Assembly (NCBI GenBank): GCA_041483455.1
Contig: JBGPFS010000003.1
Span: forward strand, 1-38,157
Origin: Candidatus Limnocylindria bacterium
Lineage (GTDB): Bacteria > Chloroflexota > Limnocylindria > Limnocylindrales > CSP1-4
Direction: 5' to 3'
DNA length: 38,157 nt
The notes under the pieces are model-generated. The model was not told where the DNA came from. It worked only from the letters and a program-made list of their open reading frames with translations, and did no database searches. The translations under genes were made by a program, and so were the position numbers. Positions 9,420 through 38,157 of the stretch are shown here, piece after piece. Position 1 is the stretch's first letter. Every line of letters starts with the position of its first letter.

Positions 9420-10073
9420 TCAATGGGCGACCAGCTCGAGGGCGATGCGGGCCGCGAAGCCGAGGATGACGAGGCTGCCGACGATGCTGACCCCGACGAT
9501 CGCCCGCGGCGGGAGGCGCCGATGCGCCAGCGAACCGAGGAGCGCGAGGACGCTCTGCCACGAGAGCGAGGCGCCCGCGACACCGACGACGAAGGCGACC
9601 CTGCCGAGGGCACCATCGCCGATCGGCGGCAGACCGAGGATGAGGGCGGCGAAGTAGATCACGGTCGCCGGGTTGAGCAGGGTCAGGCCGACGAACCGGA
9701 GGTAGGTCGCGCGGGCGTCCGGGCCCGTCGTCCGGGCCACCACGCCGGCGCCCTGCCCGGCCTCGGCCCGGGCCTCCGCCCGGACCCCGGCCCGGATCCC
9801 GCGGAGGCCGTGCCAGGCGATCGCGACGAGCGCGCCGATCGCGACGATCCGGAGCGGGGTCGCCAGCGGTTCGATGAGTGGCGCGAGGGCCGTCCCGAAC
9901 ACGGCGGCCAGCGCCGCGTAGGCGAAGTCGGCGGTCGCGGCCCCGGCGCCCGCCGCGAACGCGACCGACCGGCCCCGCCGGATCCCCGTCTCGATGATCA
10001 GGACGGCGATCGCCCCGACCGGGATGGCGATCGCGTAGCCGGCGACCACGCCGGCCAGGAAGGCGGCCACCAT
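9420..10073 (-). CDS. LysE family translocator
   Basis: IAIPVGAIAVL, GAATAD, LTLLNPATVIYF; about 6 TM segments. Confidence 0.9.
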   Translation of the reverse strand: MVAAFLAGVVAGYAIAIPVGAIAVLIIETGIRRGRSVAFAAGAGAATADFAYAALAAVFGTALAPLIEPLATPLRIVAIGALVAIAWHGLRGIRAGVRAEARAEAGQGAGVVARTTGPDARATYLRFVGLTLLNPATVIYFAALILGLPPIGDGALGRVAFVVGVAGASLSWQSVLALLGSLAHRRLPPRAIVGVSIVGSLVILGFAARIALELVAH

Positions 10074-10783
10074 CAGGCCGGCGCTCGCTCCGGCGCTCGC
10101 TCCGGCGCGCCGGCAGGCTCCTCGCTGGGCCCGGGGCTCCCGTCGCCCCCTTCGGGCCCGGCGACCCCGGCGAGCGAGCGGATCGCCCGGGCCAGCCGCT
10201 CGATCGAGCGAACGCCCGCCCGTTCGGCCGTCACCGACACGGTCGCCCGACTCACGCCCAGGTGGTCGGCGGCGTCGGACCGGCGCAGCCCGTCCACGAT
10301 GAGCAGGCGAGCCACCGCCCGCTGGGCCACGCTCAGCCCAAGGAGCGCTCCCCCGAGGACGGGCGCCAGGTCGGCGAGCAGGGCGTCGCGGCCGCGGTCG
10401 CCCGTCTGGATCCGCAGGAACGAGCGTTCCGCGCGCGCCGCCGCCAGGCCCGCCCGGGCGGCGAGGACGGCCGGGCCGGTGCGCTCGTCGGCCGCTCCCG
10501 ACCCGCGATCAACAGGTCCGAACGCGAACGACCAGCGCAGGACGAGCGGCTGGTCGTCCAGCGAGGAGCGAAGGACGGCCAAGAGCGGATCCGCCGGGGG
10601 CCGGAGGAGGCCGTGGAGCTCGGTCCCATGGGTCGCACCGAAGTCGGCGAGCCGCGCGGAGCCGTAGGCCGCGTCGAGCTCGCGACAGAGGCGGCGGAGC
10701 GCTTCGGAGGGGATGGCCCCGCCGGCGCCGGCGCCGCCGGGGCGCACGATCTCGGCGATGAGGACGATCCCCTGATCCTGCAC
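10073..10783 (-). CDS. SatD-like protein with C-terminal HTH
   Basis: VLIAEIV...GTELHGLL...FAFGPV...TGPAVLAAR pattern resembles SatD; C-terminal QRAVAR...RSDAADHLGVSRATVS HTH; GTG 10783 preceded by TACCGT-N6. Confidence 0.65.
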   Translation of the reverse strand: MQDQGIVLIAEIVRPGGAGAGGAIPSEALRRLCRELDAAYGSARLADFGATHGTELHGLLRPPADPLLAVLRSSLDDQPLVLRWSFAFGPVDRGSGAADERTGPAVLAARAGLAAARAERSFLRIQTGDRGRDALLADLAPVLGGALLGLSVAQRAVARLLIVDGLRRSDAADHLGVSRATVSVTAERAGVRSIERLARAIRSLAGVAGPEGGDGSPGPSEEPAGAPERAPERAPA

Positions 10784-10880
10784 GGCCCGACGGTAGCGGG
10801 CGGTCCAGTCAGCCGTCAATGGCTGACTCGTATGCAATCAGTCGCTCACGTCTAACCCGCCCTGGACGGAGACCCGACCG

Positions 10881-11126
10881 TCAGTGACGCACCGTCGTCT
10901 TGGTCTCGTGGATCCCCTGCGCTGCGGCCACGATCACCTGGTTGAGCGAATCCGCGATGGCCTTGGCGAGGTTCTGGTTCATCCGAACCCGGGCGACGAT
11001 CACGGTGGGTTCCGCATGCGCCCCCGCTTCACCGGTCGGCTCCGATCGATTGAGCGTGATCGTGACACCGAACTGACCGGCGCTGACGCTGAAGCCATCC
11101 GCGTAGATGTCGGGGTAGTCGGCCAT
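10881..11126 (-). CDS. Small hypothetical protein (DUF3467-like)
   Basis: IYADGFSV...VARVRMNQNLAKAI pattern; strong AGAGGAGA RBS; visibly lower GC than the flanks. Confidence 0.75.
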   Translation of the reverse strand: MADYPDIYADGFSVSAGQFGVTITLNRSEPTGEAGAHAEPTVIVARVRMNQNLAKAIADSLNQVIVAAAQGIHETKTTVRH

Positions 11127-11295: not shown

Positions 11296-11422
11296 GCCAG
11301 GACGCGTGAAGGGGGGACGATCGGACAGCCGGGACCAGCGAGCCAGGTCACGGACCGATCGGCGGCGTTCGAGCCGGAGTGTACCCGTGCTCGATCCGCT
11401 GGCGCGGATGTCCATCCCGCCG

Positions 11423-11824
11423 TCAGGACCGTCGGGACCGGATGAGCGCGGATGCAACGAGAGCGGCAAGCGCGCCGGTCGCGTCGATCCCGACGTCGAG
11501 GATGGACGGGTGGCGCCCGATCACGAATCCCTGGTGCAGCTCATCGCCGGCCGCGTAGACGATCGCCAGCGCCAGCGCCCCGGCCCACGGCCGGCGCCAG
11601 GCGGTCGTGCGCGCCAGTGCTCGCCAGAGCAGCAGCGCCAGGACCCCGAAGACCCCCATGTGCCCGGCTTTGCGGATCAGGAAGTCCAGCCCCTCGTCGG
11701 GGACGAAGCGCAGGTTCGGCTGGGCCGAGAGCGCGAAGATCAGCCCGGCCCACGCGACGGCCGGGGTCCAGGCCGCGAGTGGCCGGCCGCGCACGAGCCG
11801 GACAAGCCACACGCGAAGGTCCAT
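11423..11824 (-). CDS. VanZ family membrane protein
   Basis: IFALSAQP, IRKAGHMGVFGVL, YAAGDELHQGFVIGRHPSILDVGID. Confidence 0.92.
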   Translation of the reverse strand: MDLRVWLVRLVRGRPLAAWTPAVAWAGLIFALSAQPNLRFVPDEGLDFLIRKAGHMGVFGVLALLLWRALARTTAWRRPWAGALALAIVYAAGDELHQGFVIGRHPSILDVGIDATGALAALVASALIRSRRS

Positions 11825-11895
11825 CGCCGACAGGATACGAGCGCACGATCCCGCCGCGCCCTCTCGGATGGGCCGCGACCGCCGGGGCGCCCCGG

Positions 11896-13413
11896 TCAGG
11901 CCAGGCCCGGGTCGACCCCCCGCAGGATCGCGGCGATCGCCGTCCGGGCCGCCGGCGTCTCGTAGTCGAGGAGCGGATGGGCATCGATCCGGTGCTCCGC
12001 CACTCGGCCGGCGATCCGGGTGTAGAGGACCGGGTAGACGTCGCCGCTGCCGTCCATCTCGAGCGTGATCGCCAGCGCGTCCGGCCCGCCGGCGTCGACG
12101 AAGTCCGCCAGCGGCCCGATCCCCTCGTCGAGGATCCCGGCCGCCGGATCGAGCGACACGACCCGCGCCAGGTAGGCGCGCTGGTGCCAGATCTCGGGGC
12201 CGCACGTGAGCTCCCCGGCCACGAAGTCGCCCAGCTCGGCCGCCGGGATCGACGGCCGCTCGGGCGTGACGCCGAACCGGGTCCGCGCGATGTGGCGGGC
12301 CAGGACCCGGGCGTTGTAGCGCGCCCCCTGGACGGCCCCGGAGTTGGCCGGGATGCCGTGCTTGAGCAGGCCCTTCGCGCCCTGGCCGATCGTGCCAGCG
12401 AAGAAGATCCCGGGGGCCGTCGCGCTCTCCCAGAACGGGGTCTGGGCCGGCAGCCGGCTCTGCCCGAACGTGGCCACGCCGAGCGCCGGAAGGTCGCGCA
12501 GCGGGGTGACGAAGCCGGTCGCCGCGATCACCTCGTCGACCTCGAAGGCCATCTCGCTGGCGTCGTCGGATCGGCGCGTCCGCACCACGAGGGCGGCGCC
12601 GTCGGCGGTCCGCTCGATCGACTGGATCGAGGCGTCGAGGACGGCGACCCCGCCGCCCAGGACGTGGTCCTCGTAGGGCTGGACGTAGCGCGCCCGGATC
12701 CCGACCAGCGAATGGGTCTGGACGGACAGCTTGGCCGGGCTCGGCGAGGCGATGAGGATCCGCTTCGCCCAGGGCAGGAAGCCCGAGGCGAGCTCGAACC
12801 CGGAGTTCTGCTTGCCGATGATGAAGATCCGCTTGTCCGCGTACGTCTCGACCGGGCGGGTCTCGGCGTAGTGGGCGGTCAGGTCCATCCCCGGCGCCTC
12901 CGGGCGCCAGGGCTCGGCGACGCCGACGGCGAAGACGAGCGTCGCGGCGGTGTAGACGCCGTCGCTCGTGGTCAGCTCGAACCGGCCGTCGTCGAGCCGG
13001 CGGGTCGATTCCCAGCGGCAGCCGTACCGGACGACCAGCCTGGTCCGCTCGGCGAACGCCGCGAGCGAGGCCTCCATCTCGGGTCGGCTCGGGAAGTAGG
13101 ACGAGCCGTCCATGAACCGCGGCTGGAGCGCCCGGTGCTCGTCCTCCTCCGGGATGAGGCTGTTCCAGTCGTAGCGCTCATAGGCCCGGCTGCCGCGGGC
13201 GAACGGGGCGTAGGGCTTGGTCCAGGACAGGAGCCGCTGGAAGAACGGCCACTTCCGGAACATCCCGCCGGCGGACTCGTCGGCCGAGATGACGGCGTGC
13301 GCGACGCCGAGTCCGCGCAGGGCGTACGAGGCCTGGAGGCCGCCCGGGCCGCTGCCGACGACGACGATCGGGTAATCGCCGGGCGGGAACGGCCGCTGGC
13401 TCAGCTCCGCCAC
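11896..13413 (-). CDS. NAD(P)/FAD-dependent oxidoreductase, FOXRED2-like
   Basis: FAD motif VVVGSGPGGLQ, second dinucleotide motif IIGKQNSGFE, ATGF; RYDWNSL and YFPS motifs; GTG start lies inside the 3' end of the upstream cNMP gene. Confidence 0.85.
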   Translation of the reverse strand: MAELSQRPFPPGDYPIVVVGSGPGGLQASYALRGLGVAHAVISADESAGGMFRKWPFFQRLLSWTKPYAPFARGSRAYERYDWNSLIPEEDEHRALQPRFMDGSSYFPSRPEMEASLAAFAERTRLVVRYGCRWESTRRLDDGRFELTTSDGVYTAATLVFAVGVAEPWRPEAPGMDLTAHYAETRPVETYADKRIFIIGKQNSGFELASGFLPWAKRILIASPSPAKLSVQTHSLVGIRARYVQPYEDHVLGGGVAVLDASIQSIERTADGAALVVRTRRSDDASEMAFEVDEVIAATGFVTPLRDLPALGVATFGQSRLPAQTPFWESATAPGIFFAGTIGQGAKGLLKHGIPANSGAVQGARYNARVLARHIARTRFGVTPERPSIPAAELGDFVAGELTCGPEIWHQRAYLARVVSLDPAAGILDEGIGPLADFVDAGGPDALAITLEMDGSGDVYPVLYTRIAGRVAEHRIDAHPLLDYETPAARTAIAAILRGVDPGLA

Positions 13414-13823
13414 CGGTTCGCATTCCGCAGGCGGCGGGCCGACGCCTGGAGCATCCGGTACATCACCCGCGGGTGGTCGACGAGGAAGTCCTCCACGGCG
13501 GGTCCGGCCAGGACGAGGCAGCGCAGCGGACCGAGCGCGATGACGTCGGCCACCGGCGACTCGCCCAGCAGGATCGAGACTTCGCCGAAGAACTCGCCCC
13601 GCGAGAGCGTCGCCCGCTCCTGGCCGTCGACCTGGATCGAGCAGCTCCCCTCCAGGATGAGGTAGAAGCCCGAGCCGCTGAGGCCCTGGCGGAGGACCCG
13701 CTGGCCGGCCGGGAACCACTGCTCCTCGAAGGTGTGGGCCACCGCCTGGAGCTGGGGCGTCGTCAGGTCCGCGAAGAGGGCGAACCCGGCGATCGTATCG
13801 ACGATCTCGTCCTGTCCCGCCAT
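13401..13823 (-). CDS. Stand-alone cyclic nucleotide-binding domain protein (degenerate phosphate-binding cassette)
   Basis: LFADL...QGLSGSGFYLILEG...GEFFGEVSILLGESPVADV; no HTH; GAGGAGG RBS upstream. Confidence 0.9.
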   Translation of the reverse strand: MAGQDEIVDTIAGFALFADLTTPQLQAVAHTFEEQWFPAGQRVLRQGLSGSGFYLILEGSCSIQVDGQERATLSRGEFFGEVSILLGESPVADVIALGPLRCLVLAGPAVEDFLVDHPRVMYRMLQASARRLRNANRWRS

Positions 13824-13971
13824 GGGCCCCGTCGTCCTCCTCGGCACGGTCGTGCGACCATCGGCGCAACGAAGGGGCTCCCCAGCGCGGCCGTGTTCTG
13901 CCATCGTATCGTCCACAGCCGGCTCGACAAGCCCCGTCGTCGCGGCGTCCCGTTCCTGGAGGGTGACGATC

Positions 13972-14397
13972 ATGGTCTCGAGCGACCGGCGGACCGAGCT
14001 TCTCGGCGCGGTGGAGCTCTTCGCCGGCATCGATCCGGCCGACCTTGAGGCGATCGCCGCGCGGGCGACCGAGGTCGAGTTCCCGGCCGGTCGACCCATC
14101 GCCCGCCAGGGCGAGGTGGGGACCGGCTTCTTCGTCGTGGAGTCGGGTCGGGCGCGCGTCGTCCGGGACGGCGAGACGCTGGCCGAGCTCGGGCCGGGCG
14201 GCTTCTTCGGCGAGCTGTCGCTGCTCGACGGCGGGCCCCGGATCGCGAGCGTCGTGGCCGAGGAGCCCACCCGCTGCCTGGCCCTGCCGAGCTGGGAGTT
14301 CGAGCGGCTCCTGGAGGAGCGGCCGCGGATCGCGATCCTCATCCTCAAGGGCGTGGCCCGCCGCCTGCGGGCCGTCACCACGAGCCACCATCACTGA
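13972..14397 (+). CDS. Stand-alone cyclic nucleotide-binding domain protein
   Basis: QGEVGTGFFVVESG...GGFFGELSLLDGGPRIASV; no HTH; GGAGG RBS. Confidence 0.92.
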   Translation: MVSSDRRTELLGAVELFAGIDPADLEAIAARATEVEFPAGRPIARQGEVGTGFFVVESGRARVVRDGETLAELGPGGFFGELSLLDGGPRIASVVAEEPTRCLALPSWEFERLLEERPRIAILILKGVARRLRAVTTSHHH

Positions 14398-14420
14398 CCG
14401 GCGGTCGGTCCAAGGAGCGG

Positions 14421-14441
14421 ATGACCACGGAGCGCGGATGA
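14421..14441 (+). other. 6-codon upstream minigene MTTERG* from a 17-bp-period duplication of the cyclase start
   Basis: GCGGATGACCACGGA at 14417 and 14434; AAGGAG RBS at 14412; the TGA at 14439-14441 overlaps the ATG at 14438. Confidence 0.6.
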
Positions 14442-17173
14442 CCACGGAACGGCCGAGCCAGGCCGGGACGATCACCTTCCTGTTCAGCGACATCGAGGGC
14501 TCGAGCCGGCTCGAGCAATCGGTCGGCACGGAGGCGTACGCGACCGTCCTCGCCCGTCACCGGGCCATCCTCCGGGCGTCCTTCGCCGCCCACGGTGGCG
14601 ACGAGCAGGGGACGGAGGGCGACTCGTTCTTCGTGGTCTTCGCCAGCGCCGCCGAGGCCGTCCGGGCGGCCGTGGAGGGCCAGCGCGGCCTGTTCGCGGA
14701 GGACTGGCCGGACGACCGCCCGGTCCGCGTCCGGATCGGGCTCCACACCGGCGATGCCACCCACGGGCCCGACGGCTACGTCGGGATCGACATCAACCGG
14801 GCCGCCCGGATCTCGGCGGCCGGCCACGGCGGCCAGGTGGTCGTCTCGGCCGCGACCGCCGCCCTCGTCGGCGAGAGCCTGCCGGCGGGGGTCACCTGGC
14901 GCGAGCTCGGCTCCTACCGGCTGAAGGACTTCGCGGATCCGCAGCGCCTGAGCCAGCTGGTGGTCGAGGGCCTGCCGGCCGACTTCCCGGCCCTCCGGAC
15001 GGTCGACGCGCGACCCAACAACCTGCCGGCCACGATGACCACCTTCGTCGGGCGGGAGCGCGAGCTCGCCGATGGGCTGCGCCTCCTCGGTTCCGCCCGG
15101 CTGCTGACCGTCACCGGACCCGGGGGCATCGGCAAGACCCGGTTCGCCCTCGAGCTGGCGACCCATGCCGCGGCCGACTTCCCCGACGGGACCTTCTTCG
15201 TCCCGTTCGAGCCGGTCGACGACCCGACGCTCGTCCCGGGCACGATCGCCCGGGCCGTGGGCATCGTCGAGACCGGGGTCCGGCCGCCGCTCGAGCTGCT
15301 CGTCGAGCTGCTGGCCGGCCAGCGGGCGCTGCTCGTCCTCGACAACTTCGAGCGCCTGACGGGCGCCGCACCGATCATCGGCGACCTGCTCCGGGCCGGG
15401 CCGGGCCTGCGGATCGTGGTGACGAGCCGGGCGATCCTCCACCTCTCGGGCGAGCAGGAGTTCCCGCTCGACGGGCTGTCGATGCCGCCGGACCTCGAGC
15501 GGCGCACCCCGAGCCAGCGGACCGGCCGGGCCGGGACCGACGCCGGGGCGTTCGAGCCCGAGCGGCTCCTGGGCTTCGCGGCGATCCGGCTGTTCGTCGA
15601 GCGGGCCATGGCGGCCCGGCCCAGCTTCGGCCTCGACCGTTCGAATGCGGCCGCGGTCGCCCGGATCTGTGCCCGTCTCGACGGGATGCCGCTGGCCATC
15701 GAGCTGGCGGCCGTCCGGGTCCGGCTCCTGTCGCCGGACGCGATCCTGGCCCGCCTCGAGAAGCAGTTCGAGCTGCTGGCCTCGGGCGCCCGGGACGTGC
15801 CGGAGCGCCAGCGGACCCTGCGCGGCGCGATCGCCTGGAGCTACGACCTGCTCGACGAGCCGAGCCGGCGGCTCCTCGAGCGGCTGGCCTGCTTCGTCGG
15901 GGGCTGCGACCTCGGGACGGCCGAGCGCGTCTGCGGCCCGGCCGAGGAGCTGGGCCGCGACGTGTTCGACGGGATCGCCGAGCTCGCCGACCAGAGCCTC
16001 CTCCGGCGCTCGGAGGCGGACGGCGAGCCGCGCTTCGCGATGGCCGACACGATCCGGGCGTTCGCCCTCGAGCGACTCGAGGCCCGGGGCGAGGCAGCGC
16101 TCATCCGGCGACGCCACGCCGAGGCCTTCCTCGACCTCGCCCGGGAGGCCACGCCGCGCCTTGCCGGGGAGGACCAGCGGCGCTGGATCGAGCGCCTGGA
16201 GCGCGAGCACGACAACCTCCGCTCCGCGCTCGCCTGGGCGGTCGAGGCGCCCGAACCGGAGGTCGCCCTCGGCCTCGGCTTCCACCTCTGGCGGTTCTGG
16301 CAGAAGCGCGGTCACCTCGTCGAAGCCCGCCGACGGCTCGACGAGATCGCCGCGAAGCCCTGGGCGAAGGCCGATCCGGTCGCCCACGCCCGGCTGCTCG
16401 AGGCCCTCGGGGGGATCGCCTACTGGCAGGGCGACTTCCTCGCGGCGATCCCGGCCTACCAGACGAGCCTCGACCTGTGGCGGGGGCTGGGCGATCGCTC
16501 GGAGATCGCCAACGCGCTCTACAACCTGGCCTTCACCTACAGCATCGACGCCAACGCCCACTCGGTCGCCCCCACCTTCGACATGTCGCTCGGGCGGCCG
16601 CTCCTCGAGGAGAGCCTGGCCATCTACCGCGAGATCGGCGACGCCCGGGGGGTCGGCAACGTCCTGTGGGCGATCGGCAGCGCCGACCTGTTCGCCAGCC
16701 GGTTCGACGGGACGCGATCCGTCTTCGAGGAAGCCCAGGCGGCGTTCAAGGCGGTCGGCGACCGGACGATGGAGGCATGGGCGCTCCACATGGCCGGGGT
16801 CGTCGACGTCCACCTCCGCGACTGGCCGGCGGCAGTCGATGCCTTCCGGCACGCCCTGCGCCACTTCGTCGAGGCAGGCGACAGCACCGGGCAGGCCCTC
16901 GTCCTCGACGACTACGCGACGCTGGCCCTCGCCTCTGGCGACAAGGAGCGCGGGATCCGGCTCTGGGCGGCGGCTCGCCGGATCCAGGAGACGTTCGGGA
17001 CGGGGCTGGTGCAGGCCCAGATCAACGCCTCCGGCCAGAAGGCCTGGCTCGACCCGGAGCCGGGCGACGCCACCCCCGAGCGACGGGCCGAGCTGGAAGC
17101 CGAGGGTCGCGCGTGGACCCTCGAGGAGGCGCTCGCCTACGCCCTCGACGACGACCTGCCCGGCGTAGGATGA
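14438..17173 (+). CDS. Class III nucleotidyl cyclase - STAND (NB-ARC-like) NTPase - TPR protein
   Basis: FLFSDIEGSS, TEGDSF, RIGLHTG, INRAAR; P-loop GPGGIGKT, Walker B LLVLDNFE, GMPLAIEL; C-terminal helical repeats; no LuxR HTH. Confidence 0.93.
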   Translation: MTTERPSQAGTITFLFSDIEGSSRLEQSVGTEAYATVLARHRAILRASFAAHGGDEQGTEGDSFFVVFASAAEAVRAAVEGQRGLFAEDWPDDRPVRVRIGLHTGDATHGPDGYVGIDINRAARISAAGHGGQVVVSAATAALVGESLPAGVTWRELGSYRLKDFADPQRLSQLVVEGLPADFPALRTVDARPNNLPATMTTFVGRERELADGLRLLGSARLLTVTGPGGIGKTRFALELATHAAADFPDGTFFVPFEPVDDPTLVPGTIARAVGIVETGVRPPLELLVELLAGQRALLVLDNFERLTGAAPIIGDLLRAGPGLRIVVTSRAILHLSGEQEFPLDGLSMPPDLERRTPSQRTGRAGTDAGAFEPERLLGFAAIRLFVERAMAARPSFGLDRSNAAAVARICARLDGMPLAIELAAVRVRLLSPDAILARLEKQFELLASGARDVPERQRTLRGAIAWSYDLLDEPSRRLLERLACFVGGCDLGTAERVCGPAEELGRDVFDGIAELADQSLLRRSEADGEPRFAMADTIRAFALERLEARGEAALIRRRHAEAFLDLAREATPRLAGEDQRRWIERLEREHDNLRSALAWAVEAPEPEVALGLGFHLWRFWQKRGHLVEARRRLDEIAAKPWAKADPVAHARLLEALGGIAYWQGDFLAAIPAYQTSLDLWRGLGDRSEIANALYNLAFTYSIDANAHSVAPTFDMSLGRPLLEESLAIYREIGDARGVGNVLWAIGSADLFASRFDGTRSVFEEAQAAFKAVGDRTMEAWALHMAGVVDVHLRDWPAAVDAFRHALRHFVEAGDSTGQALVLDDYATLALASGDKERGIRLWAAARRIQETFGTGLVQAQINASGQKAWLDPEPGDATPERRAELEAEGRAWTLEEALAYALDDDLPGVG

Positions 17174-17220
17174 GGTCGCCGACCCGCGGGTCCCCCGCCC
17201 CGCCGGTCCACCGTCCCGCA

Positions 17221-17250
17221 GGTCCACGCCTGACTGGTCCACGCTTGACT
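17221..17250 (+). repeat. 15-bp direct repeat GGTCCACGC(C/T)TGACT x2 upstream of the SRPBCC gene
   Basis: Tandem copies at 17221 and 17236, plus a third GGTCCAC at 17204. Confidence 0.7.
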
Positions 17251-17265
17251 GCCCGGAGGCCACCG

Positions 17266-17751
17266 ATGACGGCGATCGCCCCGTACCAGAGCTGGATCGA
17301 GACGCCGGCCACCGTCGCGCGGGCCTGGCTGGCCGTGACCGACCCGGCGCAGATCGCCGCCTGGTTCACCGACGCGAGCCAGCTCGGGGCCGTGGGCGAT
17401 CCGTACCGGCTCGATTTCGGCGACGGCAGCCTGGTCGAGGGCGTCGTCAGGGAGCTCGACCCCGGCCGCTCGTTCGCCTACACGTGGGCCTGGTCGAGCG
17501 CCGAGGGCAGAGCCGATGCCGGGGCCGGGGCCGGCGGCCGACCGGGCGGCACTGGCGGCCGACCGGGCGCCACCCTGGTCCGTTGGATCGTCGAGCCGCT
17601 GCCCTGGGGGGGCAGCCGGATCACGCTCGTCCACGAGGCGTGGGACGAGGCCGGCCTCGACGCCGGGGCCCGCGACGAGCACGCCGCCTACTGGGACGAC
17701 TACCTCAAGGCGCTCGCGGAATACCTGGCCGACTCGCCGCCCGCAGGGTGA
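17266..17751 (+). CDS. SRPBCC (AHSA1/START-like) domain protein
   Basis: ARAWLAVTDPAQIAAWF...ELDPGRSFAYTW...SRITLVHE...YWDDYLKALAEYL; GGAGG RBS. Confidence 0.88.
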   Translation: MTAIAPYQSWIETPATVARAWLAVTDPAQIAAWFTDASQLGAVGDPYRLDFGDGSLVEGVVRELDPGRSFAYTWAWSSAEGRADAGAGAGGRPGGTGGRPGATLVRWIVEPLPWGGSRITLVHEAWDEAGLDAGARDEHAAYWDDYLKALAEYLADSPPAG

Positions 17752-17773
17752 GCCCCCGGCGGCCGGCGTTGCG

Positions 17774-19111
17774 ATGGCGGGGTTGAGCCACCTCCGGGCC
17801 TACGTCCGCACGTTCACCGGCTTCGAGCGCGATGCCCGGGTCTTCCTCCTCGCCTACCTGGTCGCCGGGGCGGCGATCGGCCTCTACTGGATCGACTTCA
17901 ACCTCTACCTCGCGGCCCTCGGGATCGAGCCCGCCACGATCGGGCTGATCGCCACCGCGAACTCGGCCGCGGCGGCCCTGATCGCGCTGCCGGCCAGCCT
18001 CCTGTCCGACCGGATCGGGCGGCGCCTGGTGCTCGCCGGCGGCCTGGCCGTGATGGGCGTCTCCGTCGCCGGGTTCCTGCTCGTCCACGGCCCGCTCGCG
18101 CTGGGGTTCCTCGCCGGCGCCTACGGGGCGGGACAGCAGGTCTTCTTCGTCGTCCAGAACCCGTTCCTCACCGAGCGGAGCCGGCCGGAGCACCGGAGCG
18201 AGCTGTTCGCGCTCGCCTTCGCGATCCAGAGCGCGACGAGCATCGTCGCCGCGCTGGTCGGCGGCCTCGTCGCCGCCTGGGTCGCCCGGGCCGGGGGCTT
18301 CGATCCGCAGGGGCCCGAAGCCTACCGGGTCCTGCTCGTCCTGATGGTCGTCCTGCTGGGGGCGGGCTGCGCCACGATCCTGGTCATCTCCGACGATCGG
18401 CCGCGCCGGCGACGCGCGACGCTGACGCCGGCCGGTGCGGGCGAGCCGGCCGCCTTTCCCGCGTCCGCGTACCGCGGCCGGGGCGGCCGGCTCCGGGGAC
18501 TCCACCTGGGCGACCGGGCGACGTTCGTCAAGCTGGTCCTGCCCGGCTTCCTGATCGCGCTCGGCGCGGGCCAGGTGATCCCGTTCCTCAACCTCTTCGT
18601 CCAGCGAAAGTTCGGGCTGGAGCTGGCCGCGCTGAACGCCGTCTTCGCGCTGACGAGCCTGGGCACGGTCCTCGCGATCCTGCTCCAGCCGGCCCTCGCC
18701 CGGCGGCTCGGGAAGATCCCGTCGGTGGTCCTCGTCCAGGGGGTGAGCATCCCGTTCCTGGTCGTGCTCGGCTTCTCGCCGGTCCTGTGGACCGTGATCC
18801 TCGCGATGGCCGTCCGGAACTCGCTGATGAACGCCGGCAACCCGATCTTCAACGCCTTCGCGATGGAGCGGGTCGCCCCGGGCGACCGGGCGACCCTGTC
18901 GGCGACGATGAGCATCCTCTGGTCGCTCGGCTGGGTCGTCGCGGGGCCGTGGTACAGCCTGCTCCAGGCGACCCTCGGTTTCGACGGCGGCTACGCGGTG
19001 AACTTCGCCACGATCATCGTCCTCTACTCGGTCGCCACCGGCCTCTACTGGATCTGGTTCGGGCGGCCCGAGCGGGCCTCGCGGGCGGCGGCCGCGGCCG
19101 GCGCGGGCTAG
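17774..19111 (+). CDS. MFS transporter
   Basis: About 12 TM segments; motif A SLLSDRIGRR and its repeat ALARRLGKI. Confidence 0.92.
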   Translation: MAGLSHLRAYVRTFTGFERDARVFLLAYLVAGAAIGLYWIDFNLYLAALGIEPATIGLIATANSAAAALIALPASLLSDRIGRRLVLAGGLAVMGVSVAGFLLVHGPLALGFLAGAYGAGQQVFFVVQNPFLTERSRPEHRSELFALAFAIQSATSIVAALVGGLVAAWVARAGGFDPQGPEAYRVLLVLMVVLLGAGCATILVISDDRPRRRRATLTPAGAGEPAAFPASAYRGRGGRLRGLHLGDRATFVKLVLPGFLIALGAGQVIPFLNLFVQRKFGLELAALNAVFALTSLGTVLAILLQPALARRLGKIPSVVLVQGVSIPFLVVLGFSPVLWTVILAMAVRNSLMNAGNPIFNAFAMERVAPGDRATLSATMSILWSLGWVVAGPWYSLLQATLGFDGGYAVNFATIIVLYSVATGLYWIWFGRPERASRAAAAAGAG

Positions 19112-19121
19112 ACTCTGCCCG

Positions 19122-20012
19122 ATGACCGCCGAGACGTCCCCCGCCCCCGGTCCGGTCCCCGACGCGGTCCGCGACAAGTCGGGGATCCCGCGCAACCCGG
19201 GCCGGCGCGACCTCGGGATGAAGGCGACCCTGCTCTTCCCCGACCGCGAGATCGTCGAGCGCTTCTACGTCCCGCTCGTCTACACCGCCTGTCGGACCTG
19301 CTACTCCGAGCTCGAGCCCGACGAGATCTTCCGGCGCGCGGTCGCTGGCGAGATCGACCCGGCCAAGCAGCGCAAGCTCATCTCGGGGGTCATCGAGTCG
19401 GGCCACGGGAGCACGATCGAGCACATCGTCTTCACCTTCGGGATCAGCGGCGTGAGCCGGACGCTCTCGCACCAGCTGGTCCGCCACCGGGCCGGCGTGG
19501 CCTTCGATCAGCAGAGCCAGCGCTACGTCAAGTTCCGCGGCGCCTCGACGATGCTGCCGAGCACCATCGCCGACGCGGACGACGCGCTGCGCGAACGGTA
19601 CGAGGAGCAGGTGGCCGGCTCGCTCGGGCTGTACGGCGACCTGGTGGCCGCGGGGATCCCCGGCGAGGACGCCCGGTTCGTCTTCCCCAACGCCACCCGC
19701 ACGAACCTGGTGATGACCACGAACCTGCGGGCCCTCATCCACATGAGCGGGCTGCGCCTGTGCACCATGGCGCAGTGGGAGATCCGCCGGCTCTTCCAGC
19801 TCATCCGGCACGAGATCTTCGGGGTCTCGCCGTTCCTGGGCAGCTTCCTCGCCCCGAAGTGCGTCGCCCTCGGCTACTGCGACGAGATGGGCAACCGCGA
19901 CGAGCACTGCCCGATCCGGCCGCACAAGGACAACGTCCTCGGGGCGTGGGCGGAGAAGTCGAAGGCCGCGAAGGTGGCCGGGCGCGAGCTGCCCGTCCGG
20001 ACCGAACCCTAG
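19122..20012 (+). CDS. thyX: FAD-dependent thymidylate synthase
   Basis: GHGSTIEH, SRTLSHQLVRHRAGVAFDQQSQRY (RHR-X8-S), EDARFVFP, AQWEIR. Confidence 0.95.
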   Translation: MTAETSPAPGPVPDAVRDKSGIPRNPGRRDLGMKATLLFPDREIVERFYVPLVYTACRTCYSELEPDEIFRRAVAGEIDPAKQRKLISGVIESGHGSTIEHIVFTFGISGVSRTLSHQLVRHRAGVAFDQQSQRYVKFRGASTMLPSTIADADDALRERYEEQVAGSLGLYGDLVAAGIPGEDARFVFPNATRTNLVMTTNLRALIHMSGLRLCTMAQWEIRRLFQLIRHEIFGVSPFLGSFLAPKCVALGYCDEMGNRDEHCPIRPHKDNVLGAWAEKSKAAKVAGRELPVRTEP

Positions 20013-22551: not shown

Positions 22552-24225
22552 ATGGCCACGACTGAAACGCGGACCGGATTCCGGCTCCCGTGGAGCTCGG
22601 CCGATCGCGGCGACACCGCGGCCGATCCCGGCACGCCCGGCACCGACGAACCGACCGATCCGGCAGGGGCCAGCGAGTCGCAGCCGGAGGGCACCGAGAC
22701 GCAGCCGATGGCGATCGAACCGGTGACCGCGGCCGAAGCCGACGGAGCGGCGCCCGGGGGCGCCTCCGAAGACGTCGCGGCCCACGAGCCTTCGCCCGAA
22801 CCGACCACCGCAACCTCGTCATACGAAGAGGGATCCCCCGTGGAGTCCGCCGTCACCGTGGCCGCCCCGACTCGGCCCACCGCCGTTTCCCCCCCGGTCA
22901 GCCCGAAGAAGCCGTCCCAGTTCATGGCCGACCTCTCGCGGGCGATGCAGGCCGCGGCCTCGAGCGCCCGGGCCGCCAGCCTGACCCAGTTCCAGGTCGA
23001 CGCCAAGACCCATGTCGAGGGGATCCACTCCCGGTCCACGACCGAGGCGACCGACCTCCGCACCGGGGCCGACGAGGATATCGCCAGCTACCGCGACTGG
23101 CAGAAGGCACAGATCGCCCGGATCCGCGAAGAGACCGAGACGAGGATCGGCGACCGGAAGGCCGGGCTCGAGCGGGAGCTGGAAGCCCACGCTGCCCGGA
23201 TCGAGCGGGAGATCGAGCGGGTCCAGTCCTGCGTCGCCGAATACGAGACCGAGATGGACCGGTTCTTCCAGAGCCTCCTGGCCGAGGACGACCCGACCCG
23301 GATCGCCGAGCTCGCCGAGCGCCTGCCCGAGCCGCCGTCGTTCGAGGCCCTGGTGGGCGGACCGGCGACCGAGCCGGCCTGGTCGCAGCCGACCGCGGCG
23401 ACCGTCGTCGTCGACGAAGCGCCCGCCGTCGAAGCGCCCGCCGTCGAGGCCCCCGCCGTCGAAGCGCCCGCCGTCGAAGCGCCCGCCGTCGAAGCGGTGG
23501 CGCCGACGATCGACGAAGTGTCGGACGACGCGGGCCCTGGCGAAGCCGTATCCCCCGCATCCGAGAACGAATCGATCGAGGCGGCGATGGCCGCCATCGA
23601 GGCCGCCTACCACGCGGCCGATGCCGAGGAGCTGGCGACGCCCGACCCTGAGGACGCCGCCGGAACGTCGGTCGAGGCCGTCGCCGAGTCGACGAGCGAT
23701 CCGGTCGAGGCGACCGCGGAGCCGACCACGAGCGAGACCGCGGAGCCGGCCCCGAGCGAGACCGAGGACGAGCCGGTCGCCGATCTCCGGCTCGCCGCCC
23801 TCGGGCTGACCCACGATCTCAGCCATGCCGAGGCCGAGGCCGTCGCCGAGGCCGTCTGGCACGACGACGACGGGATCACCACGATCGCCGACGACGCGCT
23901 CGCCGCGCGGCTGGCCGGACTGGTGCCTCACGTCGAGGACGCCGAGGCCGACGGACCCACCGAACGAAGCCAGGTCGTCGTCACCGGCCTGGTCAGCGTC
24001 GCCAGCATCGCCGGCTTTAAGCGACAGCTCGGACGGCTGAACGGCGTTCGGTCGGTCGGCGTCTCGAGCGGCCCGGACGGCGAGTTCGTCTTCAACGTCG
24101 AGCACGGCAGCGGGGTCGACCTCGGGTCGGCCGTGCCCACGCTGTCGGGCTTCCAGGCCCGGGTGACCGGGAGCGGCGATGGGATCCTCAGCGTGAGCGC
24201 CCGCGACCCCGAATCCGAGAGCTGA
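22552..24225 (+). CDS. Acidic, largely disordered protein with central coiled coil and small C-terminal globular domain
   Basis: AGGA RBS before ATG 22552; E/A/P-rich linkers, heptad-like IARIREETE...LERELEAH...IEREIERV segment; 7 bp from the downstream ATPase gene. Confidence 0.85.
   Translation: MATTETRTGFRLPWSSADRGDTAADPGTPGTDEPTDPAGASESQPEGTETQPMAIEPVTAAEADGAAPGGASEDVAAHEPSPEPTTATSSYEEGSPVESAVTVAAPTRPTAVSPPVSPKKPSQFMADLSRAMQAAASSARAASLTQFQVDAKTHVEGIHSRSTTEATDLRTGADEDIASYRDWQKAQIARIREETETRIGDRKAGLERELEAHAARIEREIERVQSCVAEYETEMDRFFQSLLAEDDPTRIAELAERLPEPPSFEALVGGPATEPAWSQPTAATVVVDEAPAVEAPAVEAPAVEAPAVEAPAVEAVAPTIDEVSDDAGPGEAVSPASENESIEAAMAAIEAAYHAADAEELATPDPEDAAGTSVEAVAESTSDPVEATAEPTTSETAEPAPSETEDEPVADLRLAALGLTHDLSHAEAEAVAEAVWHDDDGITTIADDALAARLAGLVPHVEDAEADGPTERSQVVVTGLVSVASIAGFKRQLGRLNGVRSVGVSSGPDGEFVFNVEHGSGVDLGSAVPTLSGFQARVTGSGDGILSVSARDPESES
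23416..23496 (+). repeat. In-frame 15-bp tandem repeat encoding (EAPAV)x5
   Basis: GAAGCGCCCGCCGTC at 23416, 23431, 23446 (variant), 23461, 23476, plus a partial copy. Confidence 0.95.
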
Positions 24226-35562: not shown

Positions 35563-38157
35563 TCAACCGAAGAGCGTCGTCTGCTGCCCCCCGCGGTGCT
35601 CGACCGCCGGGTCGAGCCCGAGGTACGGCTCGAGCGCCTCGAGGGTCGGGTCCTCGCCCGCGGCCCAGGTCCGGAGGTGGTTCGCCTTGAGGATGTGCCA
35701 GTCGCCCTCCTCGAGGGCGGCGCGGAGGAGCGGCGACCGCTCGAGCTTGTAGCGCACGAGCTCGGTCCGCTCGGGGAGCACGATCAGGAACCGGACGAGA
35801 TCGGGTTCCGGGGCGATGAGGGAGCCGCGCCGGATGAGGGGATCGCCCAGCATCGCGGTCCACTCCACCTCGAACAGGAAGGTCAGCCGGCCGCGCCGGT
35901 GCCAGGTGACGTCGACCTGGTCGATCGCCTCCGCCCGGGCTCGGCCGACATGAGGCGGTCCGGATCGGAACTCCGCGTCGTCGAGCCGGAGCGAGAGGAT
36001 CCGGCCGTCGACCTTGCGCACCTGCTCCCGACTCGCGATCCAGACCCGGAGACCCAGGCGATGGCCGAGGTCCGCGAGCAGGCCGACGAGCTCGCTGTGC
36101 TCGTGCGATCGGCGCAGGAGGTCGTCCGAGGTCACGAGCCGGTCGGGCGTGCTGGCGAGGCTCCGGTAGCTCTCCAGGCAGGCGCCGACGAGCGCTTCGT
36201 CGGGCAGATCGTGGCCGGTGAACAGGCTCGCGATCCGCTCGTTGAAGGCCGACTCGGACAGGTGGGCGCCGGCGGTCGAGAGGAGGCTGAAGACCGCCCA
36301 CTCCACCCGATCCGCCAGGGGGAGGGCGACGGCCGCCTGGTCCTCGCGACCGGCCAGCCACCAGCGGCCGGGCTCGATCTCCTGGATCCGGCGGTGATCG
36401 GGGCGGGTGAGCTCTCCGCGGATGATCGACAGCAAGCGGTCGACCTGGTCGGGGGCGGCGGATCGGGCGGCTCGGGCTCCAGCCCGGATGGCGACCTCGG
36501 GCGCGGCGGGCCGGGCATCAGGGCCGGCGGCATCCGGGCCGGCGGCATCGCGGGTCCCGGGGTCGGCCCCGAGGGCCGCGGCGACGCCGGTCGTCAGGCT
36601 TGAAGGGCCGGGAGCCGCCGCCTCGCCGTCCGTGGATTCGGGAGCCACCAGGCGGCGGAGCTGGCCCGCCCGGTCGAGCCCGACCAGGATCTCGCCGAGC
36701 AGGCGCTCGGTGCGGGCCGGTTCGCCCCGGGCCTGCAGGATCTCCACCACGGTCTCGGTCACCGAGCGCGCGACCGTCGCCTCCGAGAACGGGCCGCGGT
36801 CGAACCGCTCGGGCGGGGCGAAGAGGCCGCGCCCGGGGACCAGGTCCGGATCGCCCACGCCGCCCGGGACGGCCGGCAATCCGACGTTCGCCCGGGTCCG
36901 CGGGCCCTTCGGGATCGGGGCGCCGGGTGGCACGAACTCGACCGTGCCGCCGATCTCCTCGCCGGGCTCCGCGAGCCGCGCGGCGATCAGGCGGTAGCCC
37001 GCGGAGATCCCCCCGAGCGCGGCCGCCACGAGCCCCTCGGGGCCGCCCGATTCGAGCACGAGCACGACCCGGCTGTCGCGGCCCAGGATCGGGGCCGTCG
37101 ACTCGAGCGCCCGCCGGAGCGCGCTCGCCTGCCAGCTCCAGGGGACCCGGCCGGTCGTACCGAAGACGGCCTCGAGCGGCAGGAGCGACGCCGCCTCGCG
37201 ACCCAGCACCCAGCCGGTCGCGAAGTAGGCGAAGGCGACCCGCTCCGGGGTCGGGCGAGCCGGCGGCTGGCCGATGACCAGGCGCACCCGGGGCCGATGA
37301 GCCGCCCGGCTGAGCGCTTCGCCCTCGGCGCCCAGCGCCCGATAGGCCGAGGCGGTCCCCAGCCGGACCACGACGTTCGCCGCACCCTCGGCCAGGCTCT
37401 GGAGGTCCTCGCCGAACCGAACGGTCATCGGTCCGAGCGGCGCGCCCTCGAGCCGCTGGACGAACCCGCGGACCAGTTTGAACCCGTCCTCGAAGGCGAG
37501 CCAGGGATTGCGCTCGCGCCATTGGCCACCGGCGGGCAGGCGGACCCGCCCACCCGAGATCCGGAGGGTCGCGATCCGACCCGGATACCCGTTCAGGCGC
37601 GTCGACGGCAGAAGGGCGTGCAGGAGGGCCAGGCGCATCGCGGCCTCGACGGGCGCCGAGCGGAGATCGCCGTCGATCCGGCCGAGGATGGCGTGGAGCC
37701 CGGCGAGCTGTCGCGGCGTGTGGAGCTCGAGGATCGATTCGACCAGCCCCGTGTCGCCGTCGAGGGTCGGGAAACGCTCCCGGACGGCGCGCCAGGCGGC
37801 GCCCCGCGGGTCGGTGGACCCGATCCGGGCCAGGTCGTCGTCGTCGATCGAGCCGTGGCGCTGGTCTCCCCCGCCCTGCTGGTCGCGGCAGACGGGGCAG
37901 CGGTAGTGCTTGTGGACGGGACGCGGGGCGCCGTCAGGGACCGCCTCCCAGACCACCTCCTCAACGGCGACCTGTCGGCCGCACGTCCCACAGCGACTGC
38001 TGAACCGGTCGCCGATCGAGACCTTGAGGCTGCTCTGCTCGCGTGGGGCGGCAGCGATCGCCTGGAATGCGGCATCGAGGTGGCGGACGTCGGGCGGCCG
38101 GAGGACGACCTCCGCCAGGAGCCGGGTCAGCGGGCTCGTCTCGAGCGTGACCGCCCG
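35563..38157 (-). CDS. Large Zn-ribbon DNA methyltransferase-like protein with C-terminal PD-(D/E)xK-like domain (5' end beyond the window)
   Basis: Frame is open to the window edge (RAVTLETSPLTRLLAEVVL...); CGTC and CPVC pairs; LVIGQPP at the expected DPPY position; VDVTW...FLFEVE near the C-terminus. Confidence 0.65.
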   Translation of the reverse strand, partial: RAVTLETSPLTRLLAEVVLRPPDVRHLDAAFQAIAAAPREQSSLKVSIGDRFSSRCGTCGRQVAVEEVVWEAVPDGAPRPVHKHYRCPVCRDQQGGGDQRHGSIDDDDLARIGSTDPRGAAWRAVRERFPTLDGDTGLVESILELHTPRQLAGLHAILGRIDGDLRSAPVEAAMRLALLHALLPSTRLNGYPGRIATLRISGGRVRLPAGGQWRERNPWLAFEDGFKLVRGFVQRLEGAPLGPMTVRFGEDLQSLAEGAANVVVRLGTASAYRALGAEGEALSRAAHRPRVRLVIGQPPARPTPERVAFAYFATGWVLGREAASLLPLEAVFGTTGRVPWSWQASALRRALESTAPILGRDSRVVLVLESGGPEGLVAAALGGISAGYRLIAARLAEPGEEIGGTVEFVPPGAPIPKGPRTRANVGLPAVPGGVGDPDLVPGRGLFAPPERFDRGPFSEATVARSVTETVVEILQARGEPARTERLLGEILVGLDRAGQLRRLVAPESTDGEAAAPGPSSLTTGVAAALGADPGTRDAAGPDAAGPDARPAAPEVAIRAGARAARSAAPDQVDRLLSIIRGELTRPDHRRIQEIEPGRWWLAGREDQAAVALPLADRVEWAVFSLLSTAGAHLSESAFNERIASLFTGHDLPDEALVGACLESYRSLASTPDRLVTSDDLLRRSHEHSELVGLLADLGHRLGLRVWIASREQVRKVDGRILSLRLDDAEFRSGPPHVGRARAEAIDQVDVTWHRRGRLTFLFEVEWTAMLGDPLIRRGSLIAPEPDLVRFLIVLPERTELVRYKLERSPLLRAALEEGDWHILKANHLRTWAAGEDPTLEALEPYLGLDPAVEHRGGQQTTLFG

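Follow-up and report, generated by a model that had tools for sequence, protein, structure and literature searches.

In bacteria, the known receptors for cyclic nucleotide monophosphates (cNMPs) are for the most part domains of larger proteins, fused to a transcription factor, a channel or an enzyme. Among proteins with class III cyclase domains, the actinobacterial cyclase-ATPase-TPR(-LuxR) proteins, such as Rv0386, Rv1358 and Rv2488c of M. tuberculosis, join the cyclase to a P-loop NTPase and TPR repeats and have non-canonical substrate residues, while Pycsar systems consist of a cyclase and an effector with a cyclic-nucleotide-binding (CNB) domain. Here we analyze a locus of Candidatus Limnocylindria that resembles each of these in part. 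The stretch of DNA that we analyzed (the window) is 38,157 nucleotides long, and between positions 11896 and 17751 it carries genes for a flavoprotein oxidoreductase, two small CNB proteins that we call cnmp1 and cnmp2, a protein with cyclase, NTPase and TPR regions, and an SRPBCC protein. The set is not a chance arrangement, because the same set recurs in relatives. We propose, with a probability of roughly 0.4, that the cyclase feeds a cNMP through cnmp2 to a complex of cnmp1 and the oxidoreductase, and that the circuit switches the enzyme and not gene expression. The genes are as follows.

11896-13413, minus strand: oxidoreductase, 505 amino acids (Pfam Pyr_redox_3, E 5e-28)
13401-13823, minus strand: cnmp1, 140 amino acids (Pfam cNMP_binding, E 1e-15)
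13824-13971: divergent spacer between cnmp1 and cnmp2, 148 bp
13972-14397, plus strand: cnmp2, 141 amino acids (Pfam cNMP_binding, E 2e-23)
14438-17173, plus strand: cyclase-NTPase-TPR protein, 911 amino acids (Guanylate_cyc, E 5e-10; P-loop families; TPR_12, E 1.5e-17)
17266-17751, plus strand: AHSA1/SRPBCC protein, 161 amino acids (Pfam AHSA1, E 3e-13)

Genes were called in this 73% G+C window from third-position G+C, frame and translation, with Pfam as a check. The start of cnmp1 was set at 13823 since the majority of its orthologs have 140 amino acids; an alternative ATG upstream, at 13904, would leave a spacer of only 67 bp. An earlier reading of this DNA, made from the letters and translations only (the sequence-only reading), had described two divergent units around a shared region of about 150 bp, and all five genes lie where it placed them. 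The overlap that it saw between the cNMP gene and the flavin oxidoreductase gene measures 13 nt, at the start of the oxidoreductase. It was also right that the cNMP proteins and the cyclase lack a helix-turn-helix (HTH): no HTH family of Pfam matched any of the five proteins (oxidoreductase, cnmp1, cnmp2, cyclase or SRPBCC protein) at E <= 0.01.

The likeness to the cyclic-nucleotide-dependent protein kinases PKA and PKG lies in a separately encoded CNB-fold protein that is predicted to bind an enzyme partner, and the PKG and PKA regulatory CNB domains are the best solved matches of the cnmp1 profile. However, the predicted partner here is a flavoprotein rather than a kinase; of the two CNB proteins, the one that would be bound has no cassette Arg, and the canonical one is separate; and no inhibitor or pseudosubstrate segment is evident. 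The cyclase protein has the domain order of the Rv0386-type proteins and, like them, non-canonical substrate residues, but it lacks the LuxR HTH, it would be dedicated to the adjoining CNB/flavoenzyme pair, and it is one of many paralogs that Limnocylindria-type genomes encode. As in Pycsar, the cyclase gene adjoins CNB-domain genes, but there is no fused effector domain, the cyclase is of the STAND-TPR type, and the locus sits in the syntenic core genome. With the small flavin monooxygenase SMFMO (4a9w), YpdA (7a76) and 3d1c, the oxidoreductase shares a core fold of two dinucleotide-binding domains; it differs in its low identity to them, in an extra C-terminal domain that contacts cnmp1 in our model, in the motif GKQNSG, and in having no conserved Cys. 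Thus, all parts belong to known families, and what is new is the altered pocket and the wiring, in which we rate as new a separate CNB subunit on a flavoenzyme, a pair of receptor and pseudo-receptor, and a dedicated STAND cyclase. Full-text literature searches found no description of a module of cyclase, CNB proteins and oxidoreductase; PMC4886424 concerns DUF2652 cyclase-like proteins, which have no bearing on the locus.

We scanned relatives at the species level, with one genome per species, and obtained 80 loci with an oxidoreductase at 52-79% identity (the genome of L105 is flagged unpublished, and no result depends on it alone). Wherever upstream DNA is available, the gene immediately 5' of the oxidoreductase is cnmp1 (79/79 loci). 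In 63 clean pairs, the gap between the two genes is -13 nt in 31, -4 in 6 and +2 to +37 in 23, the start choice being off in the remaining 3; judged by such spacing, cnmp1 is translationally coupled to the oxidoreductase. The cyclase-NTPase-TPR gene adjoins in 66/80 loci, and cnmp2 is present in 51/80, where it is transcribed away from cnmp1 or precedes it in tandem. The comparison of gene neighborhoods that the sequence-only reading had proposed as a check thus found the genes co-conserved, in the following arrangements.

cnmp1 with divergent cnmp2 and cyclase (window type): 44/80 loci
cnmp1 with divergent cyclase and no cnmp2: 12/80 loci
cnmp1, oxidoreductase, then a same-strand cyclase after a gap of 30-90 nt: 8/80 loci, plus L083, which lacks upstream DNA
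tandem cnmp2, cnmp1 and oxidoreductase, with the cyclase not nearby: 3/80 loci
cnmp1 and cnmp2 without a full cyclase (fragmented, or at contig ends): 4/80 loci
cnmp1 alone: 7/80 loci
cyclase on the other strand, 1.5 kb downstream: 1/80 loci

The cyclase-linked arrangements comprise three clade-specific orientations or positions, which separate by clade when the oxidoreductases are placed on a tree (83 sequences, quick maximum-likelihood method, rooted for drawing only). Arrangement labels change 13 times on this tree, compared to a mean of 38.6 when the labels are shuffled. The genetic linkage of the cyclase, a point in favor of the earlier proposal, is thus kept in three forms. Moreover, cnmp2, cnmp1 and the oxidoreductase stay together as a tandem trio where the cyclase is elsewhere (L026, L028, L032, L097, L099 and L108). 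Among the other genera of the family, the oxidoreductase is present in 16/24 and missing from 8/24; in these family loci, cnmp1 precedes the oxidoreductase in all 16, and the neighborhood includes cnmp2 in 14 cases and the cyclase in 10. When the phylum was sampled evenly, the oxidoreductase was found at E <= 1e-30 in 32 of 401 genomes, concentrated in a few families. Another small class, here called the sister class, has it in 14/21 genomes and keeps the pairing with cnmp1 in 12/12 loci. In this class, cnmp1, the oxidoreductase and a CoA_binding_2 protein are encoded in that order, and divergent from them lies a CNB gene whose product has a canonical cassette and is 39-46% identical to cnmp2.

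We considered how specific the linkage to the cyclase is. The window genome (G000; 2.46 Mb, 86% complete) has nine class III cyclase domains and six CNB domains, and five relatives have 11-16 matches each to the cyclase-NTPase-TPR protein, several of them full length at 42-51% identity, a strong expansion of this family in small genomes. None of 10 loci with other cyclase paralogs has a CNB gene within 1.5 kb. Because the 10 other paralog loci lack CNB neighbors, because the cyclase is linked in three orientations across deep clades, and because cnmp2 stays with the cnmp1-oxidoreductase pair, the gene order argues for a functional coupling of cyclase and cnmp2 to this pair.

Several database proteins appear to fuse a CNB domain to the oxidoreductase. 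They were rejected as Rosetta-stone evidence, since the four that were read (P0141, P0150, P0210 and P0228) proved to be frameshift-riddled gene calls. They are a caution about domain fusions taken from singleton metagenome calls in high-G+C genomes.

The two CNB proteins differ at the site that would hold the ligand. In canonical CNB domains, the phosphate-binding cassette has the form G-E ... R-x-A-[ST], and its Arg pairs with the cyclic phosphate. The cassette of cnmp2, FGELSLLDGGPRIAS, is canonical; its Arg and Gly-Glu are kept in every recovered ortholog, and the protein scores 82.5 bits with Pfam cNMP_binding against a cut-off of 27.5. By its sequence, cnmp2 thus has the features of a cNMP-competent CNB domain. 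In cnmp1, which has the CNB fold as well (57.8 bits with the same family), the cassette is FGEVSILLGESPVAD, with Pro in the Arg column and Asp in the Thr/Ser column. This Pro and the invariant Asp (D93) are found in 60/60 aligned orthologs, and the altered cassette occurs in all arrangements, including those without cnmp2; an alignment of the cnmp1 profile to the PKG and PKA CNB cassettes with hidden Markov models confirmed the columns. Conservation in cnmp1 peaks in the cassette (residues 76-96) and the C-helix, and G80, E81, A92 and D93 of the pocket are invariant. Since these are the best-conserved parts of the protein, the pocket is under selection. The sequence-only reading had spoken of two cNMP receptors. 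Given the missing Arg and the Asp in place of Thr/Ser in all cnmp1 orthologs, we count only cnmp2 as a canonical receptor and regard cnmp1 as a non-canonical CNB protein.

There is a precedent for a re-purposed pocket, by analogy only, in the regulatory subunits of trypanosomatid PKA. [quoted passage not shown] The details given there differ from those of cnmp1: the acidic residue of cnmp1 is Asp and occupies the Thr/Ser position, whereas that of the trypanosomatid proteins is a Glu in the place equivalent to Ala202, and cnmp1 has Pro where the Arg would be.

As a separate observation, the C-terminus of cnmp2 is rich in His. The window copy has HHH there, the last residues of most orthologs are ...RH, ...HH or ...QH, and at least two His are found among the last five residues in 17/51 orthologs.

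We modeled the complex of oxidoreductase and cnmp1 from matched 60-row alignments in three runs, along with three controls. The interface score ipSAE was 0.78, 0.80 and 0.79 for the pair, while the best of the three controls reached 0.00; the runs agree on at least 86% of contacts, and the per-residue confidence (pLDDT) of the partners is at least 85. In calibration, the mark used was reached by 116/157 solved complexes and by 2/215 mismatched pairs, a guide that is only rough here, where the alignments are our own. The modeled contacts on cnmp1 are residues 3-4, 23-52 and 99-108, which leaves the cassette (76-96) and the C-helix free. Those on the oxidoreductase (224-225, 262, 280-285, 314-318, 323, 331-332, 347-354, 439-440, 454-455, 471 and 473) belong to the NADPH-domain region and the C-terminal domain. 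The models thus support the binding of cnmp1 to the oxidoreductase as a subunit. The earlier suggestion that the cNMP proteins are regulatory subunits gains from this predicted binding (0.79 versus 0.00), but the protein predicted to bind is the one without a canonical cassette.

The oxidoreductase was modeled with AlphaFold2 from a 60-sequence alignment (pLDDT 86.8; predicted template-modeling score 0.87). The model has two dinucleotide-binding domains and a confidently folded C-terminal alpha/beta domain of some 115 residues (about 390-505), which a whole-model structure search barely probes. Three solved structures tie as the best matches in VIA-align, at 18-22% sequence identity: 4a9w, SMFMO (Z 26.6, root-mean-square deviation [rmsd] 2.6, 304 aligned); 7a76, the bacillithiol disulfide reductase YpdA (Z 26.6, rmsd 3.1, 311 aligned); and 3d1c, a putative monooxygenase of S. 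aureus (Z 26.2, rmsd 3.1, 343 aligned). Foldseek agrees. By its predicted fold, then, the oxidoreductase is a small-FMO/YpdA-like flavoprotein. Class B flavoprotein monooxygenases carry a GxGxxG motif for flavin adenine dinucleotide (FAD), a GxGxxG/A motif for NADPH and an ATG linker. Here, the orthologs conserve an FAD motif, GSGPGG, and the linker, as AATGF; the second Rossmann motif reads GKQNSG (residues 200-205), with Gln at the second Gly position. No Cys is found in invariant or nearly invariant columns of 60 orthologs. The label "thioredoxin reductase", given by one source, therefore fails, since thioredoxin reductases carry a redox-active CxxC in the NADPH domain. The name "FOXRED2-like", from the sequence-only reading, is fair as a lead: a eukaryotic FOXRED2 cluster stands at rank 13, with a score of 0.98, among Atlas feature-space neighbors, the only comparison made with FOXRED2.

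Low-molecular-weight thiol chemistry is weakly hinted at by the likeness to YpdA, by the CoA-binding gene of the sister clade, and by a neighbor of one distant homolog. This Pyr_redox_3 homolog, in G275, is 33% identical, has the same C-terminal extension and has no CNB neighbor; divergent from it, in this single case, is a gene of glutamate-cysteine ligase family 2 (GCS2) (L158:99-1745 and L158:2016-3296, respectively).

The cyclase protein has a class III cyclase domain at about 8-175, a P-loop STAND-type NTPase at about 197-348 and TPR repeats at about 629-911. Its Walker A and B motifs are GPGGIGKT and LLVLDNFE, the NCBIfam model for an AfsR-like region matches 180-348 (E 5e-21), and Pfam AAA_22, AAA_16 and NACHT match below their cut-offs. 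A P-loop region between an effector domain and a repeat arm is the layout expected of a STAND NTPase, and on this pattern we assign the protein to that class. In class III cyclases, catalysis involves two metal-binding Asp and a transition-state Asn and Arg, and the substrate is specified by a Lys/Asp pair in adenylyl cyclases or a Glu/Cys-type pair in guanylyl cyclases. We assigned columns by alignment to the closest solved cyclase, Ma1120 (E 7e-17). The metal-binding Asp18 and Asp62, as well as Arg124, are kept in 72/72 orthologs, and the domain is probably active, although its product is not readable from the sequence.

These results lead us to the following reading, in which the relay from cyclase to enzyme has the probability given above. 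The invariant core of the module, which is restricted to a lineage, would be a two-subunit flavoenzyme composed of a FOXRED2-related NAD(P)H flavoprotein and cnmp1. From its loss of the Arg that binds the cyclic phosphate, cnmp1 is probably a docking or pseudo-receptor subunit, or a binder of a different ligand. The cyclase-NTPase-TPR protein would be the source of the signal: a ligand or partner at the TPR arm would cause NTP-dependent oligomerization, which would pair the cyclase domains, such that cNMP is made. In the clade of the window, cnmp2, presumably co-transcribed with the cyclase, would read the cNMP and signal to the complex of cnmp1 and flavoenzyme. The simplest relay would act through the free and highly conserved C-helices of cnmp1 and cnmp2, and enzyme turnover would be switched. 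The gene set, its conservation, the states of the two cassettes and the fold class are shown here, and the models support the binding of cnmp1 to the oxidoreductase; we infer the direction of signaling, the contact between cnmp1 and cnmp2, which nucleotide is made and what the enzyme acts on. More tentative is a broader formulation, in which a CNB protein with a rebuilt pocket is a permanent subunit of the flavoenzyme that pairs with a canonical receptor or binds a non-cyclic ligand such as a nucleoside, and a STAND cyclase gates redox activity post-translationally.

Several results weigh against this reading of the locus. cnmp2 is missing from 22/66 cyclase-linked loci, and a relay through cnmp2 is therefore not the general mechanism; five genomes with such loci have no cnmp2-like protein above 44% identity. 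In the sister class (a clade of 12 tree rows), a STAND cyclase was found within 6-8 kb in 0/9 loci. With its altered pocket, cnmp1 probably does not bind a cyclic phosphate in the canonical manner. The modeled interface is not enriched in conservation (0.64 versus 0.75 for cnmp1; 0.71 versus 0.71 for the oxidoreductase). In the cyclase, the column of the transition-state Asn120 has N in 34, H in 36 and V in 2 of 72 orthologs; the substrate-specifying Lys column has G in 32, R in 19, S in 13, K in 2 and others in 6, and the Asp column varies. Finally, the loci all come from related lineages, and the counts are thus not independent.

If true, the proposed relay would have consequences beyond this locus. 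If the CNB subunit is separate and bound to a metabolic flavoenzyme, the wiring would differ from that of the fused receptors and would amount to a bacterial counterpart of PKA-type regulation applied to metabolism, without a transcription factor. The coupling to a STAND cyclase would provide the first physiological handle on the large and unexplained cyclase-ATPase-TPR family. Knowledge of the regulatory partner and of the conserved operon could guide the search for the substrate of an enzyme from the poorly understood FOXRED2-like group, and the pocket of cnmp1 would be a clean natural example of a re-purposed CNB site.

The genomic setting bears on the alternatives. The window is contig 3 of a metagenome-assembled genome (MAG), G000. 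The named homologs of the oxidoreductase belong to Chloroflexota ('Candidatus Limnocylindrales'), and the carriers of the module form a Chloroflexota group of soil and sediment. The neighbors in the window are all classed as housekeeping (ABC transporters, SpoIID, Tag glycosylase, an aldolase, NUDIX, LysE, thyX and a nucleoside phosphorylase, as well as MoaA, acetyl-CoA synthetase, MscS, IclR and an aminotransferase), and no mobile or defense genes were seen among the other genes of the window. Two flanking genes, thyX and a SatD-family gene with an HTH, recur across genera. The locus is part of a core, syntenic chromosome rather than a defense island. thyX was rejected as a functional partner, as it is missing from the loci where the cyclase follows the oxidoreductase. 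The SRPBCC gene, which the sequence-only reading had listed after the cyclase gene, is found in only 8/80 loci and in 2/16 family relatives; it is outside the core module, an occasional neighbor or passenger.

We considered that the signal might flow in the reverse direction, such that the cnmp1-flavoenzyme complex senses redox state, NAD(P)H or a pocket ligand, the TPR arm recognizes the complex, and the cNMP is the output, read by cnmp2 and other CNB proteins of the cell. The pocket of cnmp1, invariant despite the lost Arg, would suit a non-cNMP ligand; the linkage to the cyclase persists in the 22 loci without cnmp2, six CNB domains in the genome could read a diffusible signal, and TPR arms of STAND proteins commonly bind proteins or ligands. 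Nevertheless, cnmp2 remains next to the cnmp1-oxidoreductase pair even in genomes whose cyclase lies elsewhere, a retention more readily accounted for by a receptor that acts on the enzyme, and we consider the reverse flow doubtful. The genes might also be unrelated neighbors, the cnmp1-oxidoreductase pair being a ligand-regulated enzyme and cnmp2-cyclase a separate system, with an adjacency inherited through synteny. The conserved thyX and SatD flanks indicate that synteny is generally high here, few independent events are needed to account for clade-specific arrangements, and one clade lacks a nearby STAND cyclase. Yet the cyclase is found in its three orientations or positions in deep clades, including an operon-like site at 30-90 nt without thyX nearby; of the many cyclase paralogs per genome, only the copy at the locus has CNB neighbors, against the 10 others checked; and cnmp2 relocates with cnmp1 and the oxidoreductase. 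Mere adjacency is thus unlikely.

The sequence-only reading had also raised a role in defense. In a Pycsar-like anti-phage system, the cyclase would sense infection and the cNMP would activate the flavoenzyme, which would deplete NAD(P)H or make reactive oxygen. The parts list, a class III-type cyclase with CNB proteins, is formally similar, the substrate-specifying residues of the cyclase are non-canonical, and the PycTIR/effector models of PADLOC match the CNB domains at E about 1e-11 to 1e-12. These matches, however, cover only the generic CNB domain, and the PycC models match the cyclase weakly (E 0.0055, 13.8 bits, and 0.0067, about 14 bits). No toxic module (TIR or transmembrane) is fused to the CNB domain in cnmp1 or cnmp2, which at 140 and 141 amino acids are CNB domains alone, without a killing domain. 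Nor did we find the patchy, island-borne distribution typical of defense genes: shared flanks and the same housekeeping setting (thyX, ABC transporters, MoaA and acetyl-CoA synthetase) recur across genera, with no mobile or defense genes, and the oxidoreductase tree groups by arrangement and lineage label, as under vertical descent (these are labels and not a species tree, and the module is missing from 8/24 genera of the family). We therefore regard a defense role as very improbable and retain the relay from cyclase through cnmp2 to the flavoenzyme as the preferred reading.

Although none of the five proteins carries an HTH, the earlier statement that the locus has no transcriptional output was too strong, because the SatD-HTH gene follows the oxidoreductase on the same strand.

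10073-10837, minus strand: SatD-family protein with a C-terminal HTH of the sigma-70 region 4 type, 254 amino acids

SatD (PF16264) matches 9/12 orthologs of this protein and Sigma70_r4_2 matches 11/12. The gene is found in 14/80 loci, downstream of the oxidoreductase by 16-106 nt in 9 of 11 measured relatives and by 1 kb in the window. Two motifs reminiscent of the metal sites of cyclases or GGDEF-type proteins, GDVVxSR and QGDExQG, are found in most orthologs; the copy in the window has AEIV and HGTE in place of the conserved GDVV and QGDE, and it may be a degenerate member of the family. Thus, judging from these genes, the locus may have a transcriptional output in part of the clade. A scan of 11300-19200 for sigma-70 consensus promoters and terminators returned no site of either kind. 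A promoter-like motif on the cnmp2 strand, TTGACG-N(15-20)-CAGCAT, is found in 36/43 divergent spacers of relatives (L037-L111); it is in neither the spacer of the window nor that of the closest relative, L036, which share another block, TACGATGGCAGAAC.

Three further open reading frames of the window, at 10881-11126 (minus strand), 22840-24225 (plus strand) and 35563-37956 (minus strand), encode proteins of 81, 461 and 797 amino acids; they have a coding-type composition and no Pfam match at the thresholds used. The record titles of several MAGs (L055, L066, L100, L101, L105, L106 and L113, along with those labeled Dormiibacterota) name Bauldia, Actinomycetes/Actinomycetota or Dormiibacterota, and their oxidoreductases nest among those labeled as Chloroflexota; the labels or the binning of these MAGs may be unreliable.

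In the sister class, a CoA_binding_2 (PF13380) gene, of 141 amino acids, lies directly 3' of the oxidoreductase in 4/4 loci examined.

L149:8425-8850, CoA_binding_2 gene
L150:9653-9934, CoA_binding_2 gene
L155:7546-7971, CoA_binding_2 gene
L157:7562-7987, CoA_binding_2 gene

In one of these genomes, a 677-amino-acid protein (L155:5516-7549) is encoded convergently to the operon of cnmp1, oxidoreductase and CoA-binding protein; it has an N-terminal TPR region and a C-terminal cyclase domain, a build that differs from that of the STAND cyclase.

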